A DNA stretch of 64,000 bases from an uncultured Clostridia bacterium (GTDB lineage Bacteria > Bacillota > Clostridia > UBA1381). Positions within the stretch are counted from its first letter, which is position 1. Every line of letters begins with the position of its first letter. The notes under the pieces were generated by a model, which saw only the letters and a list, made by a program, of their open reading frames with translations, was not told the origin of the DNA and did no database searches. The stretch spans positions 16,885 through 80,884 of the forward strand of contig CAKSGG010000004.1 in the NCBI GenBank assembly GCA_934454215.1, read 5' to 3'. Position numbers and translations under genes: made by a program. Of this stretch, positions 7,499 to 23,680 are shown piece after piece.

Positions 7499-8095
7499 GT
7501 GCGTGAACCTTCAATGAATAATATTCAGAAGGATGAAATTTTGAAAAAGTGTTTTGCGTATTTTGTTGAACACGGTTTAGAAAGTGTATCTATGCGAAAA
7601 ATGTGTGTCGAAACCGGAATGGCAACGAGCAGCGCTTATTATTGGTTTGGTAATAAGGACGGAGCAATACTAAGCGCAACTGAATACGGGCTGAATCGTG
7701 TGGCAGATATATTGTTTGATTATGTATATCAATATATAGATAATCTGGAATGTATCATTATAACATTTTCGGAATTTATTATGAAATATAAATCTCAGCT
7801 GAGGTTTATATATCAGGTTGTAACAAGCCAAAAATACGGCGACGAAATCAGACCGATAGCCAACAGGCTTACGGAAATATATGACCATTATACGGCGACG
7901 ATAGCAAATCACTTTGGCTGCAAAAAGACAGAACTTCAGCCTTATGTATATTTGTTTATATCCGCAGTTTTGGATTATGTTATCTGGCATGATAAAAATA
8001 AAATGGAAATTGAATTAGCCTGCATTTACAAAGCGGTAACTGATTTGATAAATAAAGATAAGGGAGGCGATGATGTTGCCGGAAGGAATATTTAA
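7499..8095 (+). CDS. TetR-family transcriptional regulator
   Basis: GGAGGT lies 8 nt before the GTG at 7499. The N-terminal HTH is 'GLESVSMRKMCVETGMATSSAYYWFGNKDG'. Confidence 0.8.
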   Translation: MREPSMNNIQKDEILKKCFAYFVEHGLESVSMRKMCVETGMATSSAYYWFGNKDGAILSATEYGLNRVADILFDYVYQYIDNLECIIITFSEFIMKYKSQLRFIYQVVTSQKYGDEIRPIANRLTEIYDHYTATIANHFGCKKTELQPYVYLFISAVLDYVIWHDKNKMEIELACIYKAVTDLINKDKGGDDVAGRNI

Positions 8096-10094
8096 GTATG
8101 AGCCTTTGTGGGGCGAGTGGCATATCGGGGAGCTTATAGGCAAGGGAAGTTACGGCGAAGTCTATAAAATATACCGTGATGTCGGCGGAAAAAGAGAATA
8201 TGCTGCCGCAAAGTACATATCCATTCCGAAAAGCGAGCAGGATAAGGAGCTTGCGTACAGCAAAGGCTTGGCAACTGATGAAGAATCATTAAGAAGTTTT
8301 TTTGAAACGAGAGCAAATACCTTTTCAAGAGAAATTGACTTGATGATGAAACTCAGGGGCAGTGCTAATGTTGTAAGATATGAGGCACATTTGAAACAGG
8401 AAAAGTCAGATGATGTCGGCTGGGATATTATCATAAGAATGGAGCTTTTGACATCACTTGAAAAGTATCTGCGAACAAACAGCTTCAGTAAAAAAGATGT
8501 TATCCGTCTTGGTATAGATATTTGCGGAGCAATAGAAAGCTGCCAGAATGAAAAGATTATTCACCGAGATGTAAAAACGGAAAACATTTTTATAGATGCA
8601 GACGGTAAATACAAGCTTGGTGATTTCGGTGTTTCAAGAGAAGCACAGGGTACCACAATGGGAACATTAACCGGTACTGAGGATTATATGGCACCGGAAA
8701 TTATGCAGCATAAAGAGTATAATAACAATGTCGATATCTATTCAATCGGTATTGTTATGTATAGGCTGCTTAATAATAACCGAATACCGTTTTTGCCGGC
8801 TGAAGGACCGATTAACGATAATGACATAAGCGTTGCTTTAAGCAAGCGAATTGCAGGAACGGAAGAAATTCCAAATCCGAAATTTGCGGACGGTGAGCTT
8901 GCACGCATTATTAAAAAAGCTTGTGAAAATGACCGACACAAGAGATATTCGTCGCCGAAACAAATGGCAGATGAACTGAAAAAGGTCCTTGAAAATACGG
9001 AAGACATCACGGTTTTAAGCCCAAGGAAAAAAGTAACAAAAACTCCGACAGGCGGAACCGTGGCAGATATTAAACGGAAAACCACCGGCGGATGTACCGT
9101 TTCGGAATTACCCACAAATGATATGGGAGGAACGGTTACAGATATTCCAAGCAAAGGAACTGTATCGGAGTTTTCTGACAGGCAAACGAGCGGCTCGGCG
9201 AGGGATGCCCCCAAAAAGAAAAAAGCATTCATTTTGGCGGCAACTGCTATTGTAGTGTGTTTGATCGCATTGGCGGTATTTGCATTTATACCAAAATCAA
9301 TTCCTGTTACCGATATTGCCGGGCTGCCGGAAGAAGCAATTTCTATGGCGATTGGTGATGAAAGAGAACTGACTTATGAATTATCACCGACAAACACGAC
9401 CGATGAAATAAAATTTGAGTCATCGGATAATGAAATTGCAGAGGTAGACAACGACGGCAAAATAACGGCGCTGGCAGAAGGAACCGTACAAATAACCATA
9501 AAGTGCGGCTCGGTTGAAAAAATTGTTGAGGTTAGTGTTGCAAAGCAAAAAATACCCGTAACGGCGATAGAAGGTGTTGAAAATTCAGCTGTTTTGGATG
9601 TTGGAGCAGCTATCACGCTTCACCCGATTGTTATGCCGGAGGACGCAACAAATCCACAGGTTGCATATCAAAGTTCAAATGCAGGTGTGGCAACTGTCGG
9701 ACCGGATGGCGTTATTACAGGCGTAGGTGCCGGCACGACAACAATTTCGATAACCGCTGACGGAGTTACAAAGGAAATGACATTGACGGTTAAGGCGAAA
9801 ACACCGGAGCCAACCAAAAAAGTTGAGGAAAAAAGATGTCCCACTTGCGGTAGTACGGCTCATACAGTACACCCCAAAGAGGTAAAAAAGTGTCCGGTAT
9901 GCGGCAGCACTTCGCACACAACGCACCCAACCTGTCCGGTGTGTGGAAGTACATCGCATACAACACACCCAACTTGCCCGGTGTGCGGAAGTACATCACA
10001 TACAGTACACCCAACAGAACCGCCTGCCGAAGTAAAACGTTGTCCTAAATGTGGAAGCACAGAACATACAGTACATAATGATTGGGGTATTTGA
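8070..10094 (+). CDS. Hanks-type Ser/Thr protein kinase with one TM helix, two Big_2-like ectodomains and a C-terminal Cys/His repeat
   Basis: 'GKGSYGEVYK', 'AAKYI', 'HRDVKTENIF', 'DFG', 'YMAPE'. TM helix 'AFILAATAIVVCLIALAVFAFI'. Big_2-like 'SSDNEIAEVDNDGKITALAEGT'. Confidence 0.9.
   Translation: MMLPEGIFKYEPLWGEWHIGELIGKGSYGEVYKIYRDVGGKREYAAAKYISIPKSEQDKELAYSKGLATDEESLRSFFETRANTFSREIDLMMKLRGSANVVRYEAHLKQEKSDDVGWDIIIRMELLTSLEKYLRTNSFSKKDVIRLGIDICGAIESCQNEKIIHRDVKTENIFIDADGKYKLGDFGVSREAQGTTMGTLTGTEDYMAPEIMQHKEYNNNVDIYSIGIVMYRLLNNNRIPFLPAEGPINDNDISVALSKRIAGTEEIPNPKFADGELARIIKKACENDRHKRYSSPKQMADELKKVLENTEDITVLSPRKKVTKTPTGGTVADIKRKTTGGCTVSELPTNDMGGTVTDIPSKGTVSEFSDRQTSGSARDAPKKKKAFILAATAIVVCLIALAVFAFIPKSIPVTDIAGLPEEAISMAIGDERELTYELSPTNTTDEIKFESSDNEIAEVDNDGKITALAEGTVQITIKCGSVEKIVEVSVAKQKIPVTAIEGVENSAVLDVGAAITLHPIVMPEDATNPQVAYQSSNAGVATVGPDGVITGVGAGTTTISITADGVTKEMTLTVKAKTPEPTKKVEEKRCPTCGSTAHTVHPKEVKKCPVCGSTSHTTHPTCPVCGSTSHTTHPTCPVCGSTSHTVHPTEPPAEVKRCPKCGSTEHTVHNDWGI
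9837..10076 (+). repeat. Coding tandem repeat: five CPxCGSTxHTxH(P) units, three of them spaced 42 bp apart
   Basis: CPTCGSTAHTVHP, CPVCGSTSHTTHPT x2, CPVCGSTSHTVHPT, CPKCGSTEHTVHN. The DNA copies differ by synonymous changes. Confidence 0.85.
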
Positions 10095-10133
10095 ATCCCC
10101 AAATAAGAAAACCTAAATGAAAGGATAAAAAGT

Positions 10134-10754
10134 ATGAAAAAAATATTTTTAAGTTTAATAACATTAAGCATAATTACGATGACATCAATTACATCGTTTG
10201 CAGCTTCAGATGTTTCGGTGTTAAAGGATGGTGCTGAATATACTCCGATACGCTATTCGTTTACCAATTATGGTGAATGGACAGAGGAGGGTTATTGCAG
10301 CAGAATTAACTATACTCCCTTGGGTGATGTAGCAAACATTAATGGAGTTGAAAAAGTTATCGATTTTGACTTGATTTCTATTTCTGTATTTGAGCCTAAT
10401 AAAAAAGGTCGTGGAGTTAGATTACAATGGTATCCAGATGGAAGCATTAAAGTTTTGGGATATGAGTTAAGTCTTGAGGTAAATGAAAAAGGAGAAAGGA
10501 AGCCATATGATTCAGGTATGCCTGTTGATATTGGTTACTTTTTGAAAAATTTTGACAACAAAGTTTTTGTTGCTGTTCCGGATCCTATAAACGGCGGTGG
10601 ACGTGTATTTGTTACCGACAAAATCGTACAGGAGATTGAACGATTCCTCTATCCGCAGCAGGATGATAACACATATAATGACGCATACAGTGAAGCTCGT
10701 CTGCAATTTTTGGCGGAGATGCGCAGCGCTATATACTCGAATTTGAATAAATAA
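10134..10754 (+). CDS. Secreted hypothetical protein
   Basis: Signal peptide 'MKKIFLSLITLSIITMTSITSFAAS'. Confidence 0.6.
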   Translation: MKKIFLSLITLSIITMTSITSFAASDVSVLKDGAEYTPIRYSFTNYGEWTEEGYCSRINYTPLGDVANINGVEKVIDFDLISISVFEPNKKGRGVRLQWYPDGSIKVLGYELSLEVNEKGERKPYDSGMPVDIGYFLKNFDNKVFVAVPDPINGGGRVFVTDKIVQEIERFLYPQQDDNTYNDAYSEARLQFLAEMRSAIYSNLNK

Positions 10755-10776
10755 CAGAGAAAGGAAGAAATAATCA

Positions 10777-23015: not shown

Positions 23016-23033
23016 TTTGTGGAGGTGATACAT

Positions 23034-23333
23034 ATGGCAGATCAGATTTTGGTGAATCCAAGTGATTTAACAACAAAAAGTAATCAGGTACGGCAGTATA
23101 AGGAAAGTCATCACGACATTATGAACAAAATCACGAATCTTGTTATGACTTTGGGAGAGGTTTGGCAGGGTGATGCTCAAAATGCGTTTGTAAGCAAATA
23201 TTTAAGTATGCAGCCGGTGTACGACAGCTTTGAGGAAGCACTGGAGGAGTTTGCGGCTTTAATGGAAAAAGTGGCGGACGAAATGATGAAAACCGACCAA
23301 GCCGGGAAAAATATAATTAATTCAATCTATTGA
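23034..23333 (+). CDS. WXG100/EsxA-like protein
   Basis: GGAGGTG SD. 99 aa. 'EVWQGDAQNAF'. Confidence 0.8.
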   Translation: MADQILVNPSDLTTKSNQVRQYKESHHDIMNKITNLVMTLGEVWQGDAQNAFVSKYLSMQPVYDSFEEALEEFAALMEKVADEMMKTDQAGKNIINSIY

Positions 23334-23383
23334 TTTATGCAGCGAAAGCTGAATAAATAAAAAATTTAAGGAGGTCATTTAAA

Positions 23384-23680
23384 ATGGCAGTAATTCAGGT
23401 AACGCCGGAAACTTTGAGACAGAAGGCAACGGATGTTCGTACATATAAAGGCGAACACGATGACGTAATCGCAAAACTCAAAACATTGGTAAATGGTCTT
23501 AATGAGACATGGAAAGGTGAAGCGCAGGACGCATTTTTGGCTAAATTCGAAAGTATGCAGTCAACATTTACAAACTTTTCCGAAATGCTTGAGGGGTACG
23601 CAAAGCTGATGGATACAGCAGCAACGCAGCTCGAAAACACAGACCAGTCATTGAAATCAACTATGACAAATTTTGGTTGA
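23384..23680 (+). CDS. WXG100/EsxA-like protein
   Basis: AAGGAGG SD. 98 aa. 'ETWKGEAQDAF'. Confidence 0.85.
   Translation: MAVIQVTPETLRQKATDVRTYKGEHDDVIAKLKTLVNGLNETWKGEAQDAFLAKFESMQSTFTNFSEMLEGYAKLMDTAATQLENTDQSLKSTMTNFG

Follow-up and report, generated by a model that had tools for sequence, protein, structure and literature searches.

A type VII secretion system (T7SS) locus lies on a 64-kb stretch of DNA from an uncultured Clostridia bacterium, hereafter called the window; all coordinates are given in its numbering, and all genes of the locus are on its + strand. The locus is built around a co-directional and tightly packed gene string (8070-23680, with intergenic gaps of at most 51 bp), read from an open reading frame (ORF) listing with translations and from Pfam and NCBIfam scans. 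It encodes a membrane Ser/Thr kinase, two secreted proteins, a soluble FHA protein, a membrane phosphatase, an EssC-type ATPase, a chaperone-like protein, a YukD-like protein, WXG100 proteins and toxin-like candidate substrates. An earlier note, made from the sequence alone, had listed this string, and the ORF calls and family matches bear out each of its genes, in place and in strand. The upstream limit that it set probably needs correction: the system is likely to begin further upstream, at a conserved integrase and TetR regulator (6235-8095). Predictions from a terminator scan of the locus were at chance level, and the operon limits are not based on promoter or terminator scans.

The same note had recognised no EssB, EsaA or EssA, and this stands within the window: the hidden Markov model check that it had proposed, made with the Pfam and NCBIfam models, returned no match to EssB/YukC, EssA or EsaA in any sizeable ORF of the 64 kb. 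Three candidates for missing or additional parts were rejected. The 1509-aa ORF at 35228-39757, considered as a second EssC, is a C11 clostripain-family protein; the 1010-aa ORF at 41573-44605, considered as EsaA, is a helicase; and the S8 subtilase at 29959-32274, considered as a mycosin analogue, has neither a C-terminal transmembrane (TM) helix nor a conserved linkage to the locus.

Such systems have a recent nomenclature. Garrett, Higginson & Palmer (microLife 2024, PMC11217815) defined subtypes T7SSc to T7SSj from RefSeq EssC neighbourhoods. All of these keep the ATPase (TsxC) and a WXG100 protein (TsxA), most keep YukD (TsxB), and none has EssB, EssA or EsaA; in several, these are joined by a Ser/Thr kinase of the membrane (TsxD), a phosphatase of the PPM family (TsxF) and an FHA protein encoded separately (TsxJ).

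Relatives of the present locus were sampled by exact-protein look-ups of the homologues of its EssC and FHA proteins, which gave about 10 independent contexts (handles L001, L003 and so on), compared by phmmer. The window-type order runs integrase, (TetR), Big_2 kinase, small secreted protein, Cu_amine_oxidN1 secreted protein, FHA protein, (PP2C phosphatase) and EssC, and it is kept in L003/L004 (EssC 67% identical), L011 (about 32%), L014 and L015. Because the same gene order is found in independent metagenomic lineages with EssC proteins 32-67% identical, the adjacency is not a matter of chance, and the connection of kinase, phosphatase and FHA protein to EssC that the earlier note had drawn is supported by this conserved synteny.

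Genes of the locus

The string opens with a TsxD-like, single-pass TM Hanks-type Ser/Thr kinase (8070-10094; Pkinase E = 2.5e-43, Big_2 E = 2.6e-20). A cytoplasmic kinase domain is followed by a linker carrying threonine motifs, a TM helix (residues 386-404), an ectodomain of two Big_2 domains and a Cys/His repeat tail. The catalytic motifs are intact (G-loop GKGSYGEV at 24, K48, HRDVK at 165, DFG at 185, APE at 208) and the activation loop is rich in threonine; the predicted protein has the full motif set of an active Hanks-type Ser/Thr kinase. Its extracellular C-terminal tail (residues 590-669; 9837-10076) is made of five tandem CPxCGSTxHTxH repeats, each with two Cys and two His in a zinc-knuckle-like arrangement. 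The kinase orthologues in L003 and L011 have no such repeats, and the tail may be a lineage-specific one for metal binding or sensing.

The partner enzyme is a TsxF-like, single-pass TM phosphatase of the PP2C/PPM family (12806-14431; PP2C E = 3.5e-15, Stp1_PP2C_phos E = 1.4e-54), in which all catalytic motifs are present (DGMGG at 58, GDSR at 139, CSDG at 216, DNVT at 257). It too has an ectodomain of two Big_2 domains, and the ectodomains of the two enzymes are paralogues (33-46% identity, E = 3e-17). Between the kinase and the FHA gene stand those of two proteins with Sec signal peptides. The smaller (206 aa; 10134-10754) belongs to no family; its positional counterparts in L003, L011, L014 and L015, of 191-205 aa, have no phmmer link to it, and their alignment is weak but collinear. 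By sequence and position it is a fast-evolving protein with a positional orthologue in every window-type locus. The larger (413 aa; 10777-12018) comprises Cu_amine_oxidN1, a PEGA/CarboxypepD_reg-like Ig-fold and a low-complexity tail, and has orthologues in L003 (8e-32) and L011 (1.2e-34), as well as in L014 and L015. Both are kept in order across the window-type loci and are for this reason regarded as conserved components.

The ATPase, EssC/TsxC (14455-18969), scores 1142 bits against the Firmicute EssC equivalog model TIGR03928, whose cut-off is 778. Its start was first called at 14437, and is more likely at 14455 because a 100%-identical database entry is 1504 aa long. Besides TM helices, it contains three P-loop domains, with Walker A motifs at 691, 1034 and 1309. 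Two FHA domains, as the earlier note had stated, are present, and they stand at its N-terminus. The first is degenerate and the second, FHA2, is canonical (FHA E = 9.4e-22), with R114, S128, H131 and N150 in the 1504-aa numbering (GR 113-114, SGKH 128-131, NGT 150-152).

A second protein with this architecture is encoded just before the phosphatase (243 aa; 12048-12779; Pfam FtsK_SpoIIIE_N and FHA). It matches the EssC N-terminus collinearly from residue 1 (32% identity over 196 aa, E = 5e-21), and its FHA2 is likewise canonical (R116, S130, H133, N152). An AlphaFold2 model has a mean predicted local distance difference test (pLDDT) score of 84.8 overall, rising to about 95 over residues 1-200, and the PDB entries closest to it in Foldseek are the tandem-FHA modules of YukB/EssC (9qks, 5fwh, 1wv3); for the last 37 residues (12666-12776), a predicted disordered C-terminal tail, the score falls to about 31. 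From sequence and model, the protein is a soluble paralogue of the cytoplasmic N-terminus of EssC with a predicted disordered tail. There is no DUF6382 match in it, even at E <= 1, so that it is not TsxJ as defined in PMC11217815. Both FHA2 domains are closest in sequence to the phosphothreonine (pThr) readers Rv1747, GarA, OdhI and EmbR rather than to EssC of T7SSb; YukB is the best PDB match of the window EssC, with an alignment that begins only at residue 153, beyond the FHA core. The two FHA2 domains look like real pThr readers.

Could the kinase and phosphatase act from a distance instead, through transcription or an IreK/IreP-like envelope stress response, with a purely structural FHA region on EssC and the soluble FHA protein as the output? 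Precedents exist: IreK-dependent transcriptional activation of T7SSb is known in Enterococcus (cited in PMC11217815), the Esr1 pathway of Schaalia is transcriptional and works via an FHA output protein (PMC13622651), and a TetR gene is conserved upstream of the present kinase. Yet EssC itself keeps the full pThr triad, unlike EssC of T7SSb; the FHA protein duplicates the N-terminus of EssC, and no DNA-binding or other output domain was found in it; PASTA domains are absent from the kinase in the Pfam scan; and the genes are embedded in a secretion operon on a mobile element. Indirect regulation of this kind is therefore improbable.

Directly after EssC stands a 266-aa protein without a TM helix (18987-19787) that the earlier note had listed as cytosolic and had left without an identity. 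It has no Pfam family, and the assignment comes from its fold, the criterion being the quasi-two-fold alpha/beta fold of EspG. Its AlphaFold2 model (pLDDT 89.1, predicted TM-score 0.83, built on 15 homologues) has mycobacterial EspG1, EspG3 and EspG5 as all of its top 18 PDB matches in Foldseek (E = 5e-14 to 2.6e-9), with TM-scores of 0.55-0.68 at full length over about 260-285 columns; the next match has E = 1.8e-3 and a TM-score of 0.19. The protein is, by its modelled fold, an EspG-type T7SS chaperone (TsxG-like) with putative substrate binding. Its family counts 350 representatives at 50% clustering, all of about 250-290 aa and without a Pfam model, and a homologue directly follows EssC in L003, L005, L006, L008 and L010; in L011 and L014, neither an EspG-like gene nor YukD is recognisable at that position.

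The remaining genes are those of export. A YukD/EsaB-like ubiquitin-fold protein (TsxB; 19787-20044; PF08817 E = 7.3e-9) is followed by an EsxA/TsxA-like WXG100 protein (20048-20335; PF06013 E = 8.9e-11), a first candidate substrate or toxin (20368-21525), a small DUF4176 partner protein (21540-21830; PF13780 E = 6.2e-27), a second candidate substrate or toxin of 387 aa (21852-23015) and two more WXG100 proteins, likely substrate partners (23019-23333 and 23384-23680; PF06013 E = 1.1e-12 and 3.9e-19). The first candidate, which has no Pfam match and a homologue in L003, joins a helical N-terminal domain to a Gly-rich hydrophobic C-terminus. The second joins the same N-terminal domain to an unrelated C-terminus containing Cys and His, for which no PDB sequence match was found. 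With 139-aa N-terminal domains 64% identical and unrelated C-termini, these two proteins of about 385 aa have a polymorphic-toxin architecture. In L003 and L015, a DUF3592 membrane protein, which could be an immunity protein, is encoded after DUF4176.

A recurrent threonine motif

The juxtamembrane linker of the kinase (9057-9173) holds four copies of a short motif of the form G-T-V-x-[D/E]-[I/L/F], centred on T330 (TVADI), T343 (TVSEL), T355 (TVTDI) and T364 (TVSEF). Two further copies, T221 (TFSLF) and T238 (TVSLF), stand in the tail of the FHA protein. For this tail and for the juxtamembrane linkers of the kinases together, the motif can be written G-T-[VIFLM]-S-x-[F/Y], and for the four linker copies also G-T-x-S-x-[F/I/L]. 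Within the window, there are six matches in the 179 residues of linker and tail, against ten in the other 19,282. The motif was defined from the window, and the relatives serve as an independent test. Over about 100,000 residues of + strand ORFs from the window and 15 loci, 24 of the 31 matches to the tight motif fall in kinase linkers or FHA tails, which make up about 1% of the residues.

The motif recurs in the otherwise unconserved linkers of the kinases of L003, L005, L006 and L015; it does not vary when three FHA proteins of 39-57% identity are aligned; and one to six copies occur in all but one of 21 full-length members of the FHA family, in tails of 44-251 residues and of variable sequence. 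The pThr-binding triad is also kept in 20 of these 21. From the T7SSe-like control locus L009, the motif is absent, both in the kinase and in the DUF6382-FHA protein.

A disordered and repeated Thr motif beside a kinase domain, together with a pThr-competent FHA domain, is the classic arrangement of an FHA phospho-switch, as in GarA/OdhI and Rv1747. In the case of GarA, the pThr segment that is bound is its own; Rv1747 forms clusters by multivalent contacts between pThr and FHA. The likeness extends to the sequences, as these proteins are the closest matches to both FHA2 domains and likewise combine FHA with a disordered segment bearing Thr acceptor motifs; their outputs differ, being inhibition of metabolic enzymes or clustering of a transporter and not secretion. 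We infer that T330, T343, T355 and T364 of the kinase and T221 and T238 of the FHA protein are candidate phospho-acceptor sites on which FHA domains could dock, and docking through the juxtamembrane motifs is more likely than docking through the kinase lobes.

A second active-looking Hanks kinase, with a polytopic membrane C-terminus, is encoded 3 kb downstream of the T7SS genes (26608-28590), among SLH and Cu_amine_oxidN1 surface proteins. Its linker carries the motif twice, as GTISIF and ETVSDI (27613-27666), and it may feed into the same FHA readers.

Relatives and known systems

Besides the window-type loci, a rearranged type is found in L005, L006/7 and L010 (EssC 39-46% identical), where EssC is followed by EspG-like, YukD, WXG100, toxin and further WXG100 genes and only then by phosphatase and kinase. 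There the phosphatase is cytoplasmic or single-pass, the kinase ectodomain is TPR (as in L005) or of another kind, and a soluble FHA protein is missing. The linkage of a PP2C and kinase pair to EssC in this type as well supports phospho-gating. L009 (EssC 33%) has the published T7SSe layout and served as a positive control.

Two more distant loci differ in other ways. L008 (9613-21061) encodes an FHA-bearing EssC (closest reference TsgC, 37%), an EspG-like protein, a divergently transcribed YukD and a ParA/CbiA-like ATPase, with neither kinase nor phosphatase, a combination that is not among T7SSc-j. L012 (5679-16733), on a contig of a Synergistaceae metagenome-assembled genome (MAG) from the diderm Synergistota (JGI 3300042652), encodes EssC, YukD and three WXG100 proteins with no kinase nearby, and immediately ahead of it stand a FlgT_N-like gene and two LpoB/CsgG-like genes. 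CsgG represents a family of outer-membrane secretion channels, and in a diderm host such genes could give a T7SS its passage across the outer membrane.

These relatives bear on a proposal of the earlier note, that the kinase is a live counterpart of EssB. In its strong form, the kinase would be a structural core subunit that replaces EssB/YukC and docks constitutively on FHA2 of EssC, its TM helix and ectodomain would belong to the scaffold of the channel, and phosphorylation would be secondary. The topology is indeed that of EssB, with an N-terminal kinase fold, one TM helix and an ectodomain, as the note had observed; the comparison had already been made for TsxD, together with its conserved active site and a parallel to threonine phosphorylation in type VI secretion (PMC11217815). 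In T7SSb, FHA2 of YukB contacts the αC-helix and lobe loops of the YukC pseudokinase domain, and also YukD (PMC12637312). The kinase is moreover present in all window-type loci, and apart from the phosphatase the locus offers no other candidate membrane partner. Against this, no EssB/YukC model of Pfam or NCBIfam matches the kinase, its catalytic residues and its partner phosphatase are retained, which argues for signalling, and the feature that the kinases have in common is the linker motif and not a lobe surface. In the sister lineages, the kinase lies downstream, differs in length and bears unrelated (TPR) ectodomains, and none is found near L008 or L012; a regulator fits these facts better than an obligatory structural core subunit. 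The live-EssB proposal is thus not supported, and we hold it to be unlikely.

Placement among the known subtypes was sought from EssC. The references were the N-terminal 400-680 residues of ten ATPases, one per subtype, machine-read from Fig. S2 of PMC11217815. The control behaved as expected of T7SSe, with 408 bits and 37-38% identity to TseC and clustering with it at 93-98% bootstrap, against 161 bits and 24-26% for the window EssC. The best reference for the latter is TsjC (228 bits, 28-30%), with which it does not group in a neighbour-joining tree (Poisson distances, about 580 aligned columns), where the support of deep nodes is weak (at most 38%); in the same tree, with the same deep nodes, no reference nests inside the window EssC group. 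When 579 shared columns are compared, identity among the named subtypes is 15-30%, and that of the window EssC to any of them is at most 28%, as against 63% to L003, 38% to L005 and 32% to L006.

As in T7SSc-j, and especially in T7SSj and T7SSe, there are an EssC-type ATPase, WXG100 and YukD-like proteins and no EssB, EssA or EsaA; the membrane kinase TsxD, the PPM phosphatase TsxF, a separate FHA protein and the GR / SxxH / NG triad on the ATPase are shared, as are LXG-like toxins with WXG100-like partners, the regulatory hypothesis itself and the T6SS analogy. The published survey had found that the FHA domain of the ATPase keeps this triad exactly in the kinase-bearing subtypes (PMC11217815): in its Table S1, the three parts of the triad are at 0/0/21% in TsbC (100 sequences) and at about 90-100% in TsdC, TseC and TsjC. 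The differences are several. The window FHA protein is a paralogue of the EssC N-terminus and not DUF6382 plus FHA; the locus lacks a large Ig-repeat TsxI and the small TsxH and TsxK; its EspG-like chaperone is of a kind reported in PMC11217815 only for subtypes a, c, h and i; its phosphatase is membrane-anchored with an ectodomain; two secreted proteins are conserved; and the whole is integrase-linked on a mobile element.

Taken one by one, the nearest subtypes depart from the window in distinct respects. T7SSe likewise has a membrane kinase (TseD), a PPM phosphatase (TseF) and, on its ATPase, an FHA domain competent for pThr. TseJ (DUF6382 + FHA) is not matched, the N-terminal domain of the window protein being FtsK_SpoIIIE_N and like FHA1 of EssC, and among the ORFs at 8-24 kb none corresponds to TseI (Ig repeats, signal peptide, C-terminal TM helix) or to the small single-TM TseH and TseK; the 413-aa secreted protein, unlike TseI, has one Ig-like domain and no C-terminal TM helix. 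A 182-aa protein encoded 6 kb beyond the T7SS genes (29398-29946), with an N-terminal zinc ribbon and two TM helices, is reminiscent of TseK as described, which has a zinc ribbon and a single TM helix. For T7SSj, the compared part of the component list gives the TsjD kinase a TPR C-terminal domain, where the window kinase has Big_2, and the window has no equivalents of the TsjI, TsjJ (DUF6382-FHA) and TsjK given there. In T7SSc, the TscC ATPase is without FHA and is accompanied by the vWA protein TscE; the window EssC has FHA, and no vWA gene occurs in the locus, the only one in the window (48572-50152) being about 25 kb away in a MoxR context. To T7SSb, the locus is likened by an EssC that passes the Firmicute equivalog model, has YukB as best PDB match and begins with tandem FHA domains, and by YukD, WXG100, DUF4176 and polymorphic toxin-like substrates. 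It differs in the lack of EssB, EssA and EsaA and in a pThr-competent FHA2, which T7SSb does not have (GR/SxxH 0% in Table S1 of PMC11217815). Given the absence of DUF6382-FHA and of TsxI, TsxH and TsxK, the presence of an EspG-like protein, FHA on the ATPase and the divergence of EssC, the locus appears to fit none of the subtypes c-j, its EssC being at most 28-30% identical to any of the ten partial references.

Outside the T7SS, the threonine-phosphorylation pathway of type VI secretion systems (T6SS) is made of PpkA, PppA and Fha1 in Pseudomonas aeruginosa and of PpkA, TssL and Fha in Agrobacterium tumefaciens. The earlier note had matched the kinase, phosphatase and FHA protein to the former, and as an analogy this is reasonable: the secretion locus houses a Hanks kinase together with a PP2C and an FHA protein, and the proposed logic is that binding of pThr by FHA licenses assembly. 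It is not orthology, as TIGR03354 scores 27.3 bits against a cut-off of 120.25 and the window has no T6SS genes. The machine is unrelated, the FHA protein is not an orthologue of TagH/Fha1, and in the window the motor ATPase itself carries the reader domain.

A parallel with experimental backing is the Esr pathway of Schaalia odontolytica (PMC13622651, a preprint of September 2026), in which MoxR, vWA, a kinase/phosphatase pair and an FHA protein make up a threat-sensing pathway that controls Esx, a threonine is phosphorylated in a disordered region of the FHA-domain protein, and a paralogous cluster inside the Esx locus is proposed to gate export post-translationally. The likeness lies in the kinase/phosphatase pair, in threonines within a disordered segment of an FHA output protein and in an Esx-embedded cluster. 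The differences are the host (Actinomycetota), the input through MoxR, vWA and a beta-propeller surface protein, the pseudophosphatase N-domain of the FHA protein and an EccC without FHA (PMC13622651).

Setting, proposed mechanism and meaning

Upstream of the string (37-7107) the window encodes a type IV secretion system (T4SS) coupling protein, RepA_N, a resolvase, a YpsA/SLOG protein and a tyrosine recombinase. The last of these is the integrase (6235-7107; Phage_integrase E = 1.2e-28), which stands immediately upstream of the kinase module in every window-type locus (orthologues in L003, L011, L014 and L015). The TetR-family regulator (7469-8095; TetR_N E = 4.4e-5, just under the Pfam cut-off) has orthologues in L003 (9e-88) and L011 (8e-103), and a TetR gene is present in L015 too. 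Two exact copies of a 22-bp palindrome, CCACATAATATCGATTATGTGG (7119-7140 and 7390-7411; none expected by chance), flank the region between integrase and TetR; this exact sequence is common only to the window and the near-identical locus L001, and may be a recombinase or regulator site. Downstream (41573-63911) follow a helicase, a DnaN-like protein, SSB, MoxR, vWA, a JAB/ThiF/E2 ubiquitin-like system, a DUF6094 methyltransferase, Rad52, an SMC-like ATPase and a primase-like gene. In L014, the locus adjoins a relaxase and NikA. As a whole, the window resembles a conjugative element that has the T7SS for cargo, and the module of integrase, kinase, two secreted proteins, FHA protein and EssC, judged by its gene order, is syntenic down to 32% EssC identity, on mobile elements.

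In mycobacteria, conjugative plasmids depend on a T7SS as well as on a T4SS. One may then ask whether the present T7SS serves the conjugative element, in mating-pair formation or in support of DNA transfer as in mycobacterial pRAW/ESX, and not competition by toxins. The genes for a T4SS coupling protein, RepA_N, SSB, Rad52 and a primase-like protein that flank the locus, the relaxase and NikA beside L014 and the ever-adjacent integrase would agree with this. However, the rearranged loci L005 and L010 sit in ordinary chromosomal contexts, and the cargo consists of polymorphic toxin-like proteins, M23/VanY peptidases, lipases and phospholipases, typical of antibacterial T7SS, which makes a role in conjugation very improbable.

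Other downstream genes deserve mention. A bpMoxR ATPase (46662-48047), of the family of MoxR-vWA-beta-propeller ternary systems, and the vWA protein (48572-50152) lie about 23 kb from the T7SS with an SSB gene between; a link to the T7SS, by likeness to the Schaalia Esr pathway, is speculative. Large secreted proteases are encoded nearer (29959-32274 and 35228-41220): the S8 subtilase, which carries Cu_amine_oxidN1 and two SH3 domains, and the C11 clostripain-family protein, after which an MA-superfamily peptidase-like protein is encoded. In the relatives examined, these genes are not kept together with the T7SS.

As to distribution, close EssC proteins among species-representative genomes came from two uncultured gut Clostridia MAG contigs only, and nearly all homologues are from metagenome assemblies. 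A metagenome search with the FHA-protein alignment returned one 2.3-kb contig. No EssC closer than about 31% was found on plasmids of cultured organisms, and the element backbone had no DNA match in PLSDB. The locus is known only from uncultured MAGs, which a RefSeq-based survey would presumably not hold.

The locus is read here, with a probability of roughly 60%, as a phospho-gated, self-contained and integrase-linked T7SS, neither of type a nor of type b, that is carried as cargo on a conjugative element of uncultured gut Clostridia. Phospho-regulation is its likely mechanism. Kinase and phosphatase, through their paralogous Big_2 ectodomains, would sense one common signal outside the cell, possibly helped by the two secreted proteins. 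Once activated, the kinase would phosphorylate the threonines of its linker and the two motifs in the disordered tail of the soluble FHA protein, and the FHA2 domains of EssC and of its soluble paralogue would dock on these pThr motifs. Since both motifs and reader domains are multivalent, docking would recruit or cluster EssC protomers, and this in turn would license assembly or activity of the hexameric channel, and hence export. The soluble FHA protein may act positively, as a bridging adaptor, or negatively, as a GarA-like self-binding switch or decoy, and the PP2C would reset the system. On the cargo side, the EspG-like chaperone would hold the helical N-terminal domains of the two toxin-like substrates and feed them to EssC, through which they would leave in the company of their partners of the WXG100 and DUF4176 families. 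For YukD, stabilisation of the FHA module is probable, a role that has been shown in B. subtilis (PMC12637312).

Several observations weigh against this reading. The motif was defined from the window itself, and several of the loci are near-duplicates, which leaves about seven independent lineages; the kinase linker of L010 is without it, and in the kinase of L011 it is found only as a relaxed form, T-x-x-E-F. L015 has no PP2C, and L008 (EssC 35%) and L012 (32%) keep most of the FHA triad with no kinase within 10 kb. An obvious immunity gene is missing beside the two toxin-like genes; DUF4176 and WXG100 proteins are all that is encoded between and after them (20368-23680). Finally, the subtype placement rests on machine-read partial references and on weakly supported deep nodes.

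A bolder extension, which we regard as rather doubtful, would make the locus a minimal T7SS membrane apparatus. An EssC hexamer with the live kinase, the membrane phosphatase and the two secreted, wall-associated proteins would replace EssA, EssB and EsaA; multivalent, Rv1747-like pThr-FHA clustering would license assembly; and an integrase-bearing island would move the whole as a portable signal-gated cassette between conjugative elements of gut Clostridia.

What does the locus add, then, to the biology of the T7SS? Its kinase/phosphatase/FHA variants were defined only by genomics, in 2024. The interpretation in the earlier note is a rediscovery, because a kinase/phosphatase/FHA T7SS and its comparisons with the T6SS and with EssB topology had been published in PMC11217815. 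The general design has been known since then; the gene arrangement and the combination of components are new, though not categorically so, and no current view is overturned. New in the present analysis are the EspG-like assignment, the recognition of the FHA protein as an EssC paralogue, the conserved secreted proteins, the mobile link and the Thr motif. In this combination, an EssC whose FHA domain is pThr-competent occurs together with an EspG-like chaperone, a soluble paralogue of its own N-terminus, a PP2C anchored in the membrane and the two secreted proteins, and the origin of the locus in uncultured gut Clostridia put it beyond the reach of the RefSeq survey. With the candidate phospho-sites (T330, T343, T355 and T364; T221 and T238) and the reader residues (R114 of EssC, R116 of the FHA protein), the general hypothesis becomes concrete. 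Lastly, the travel of such systems as integrase-linked cassettes on conjugative or mobilisable elements of the gut bears on how interbacterial weaponry spreads.

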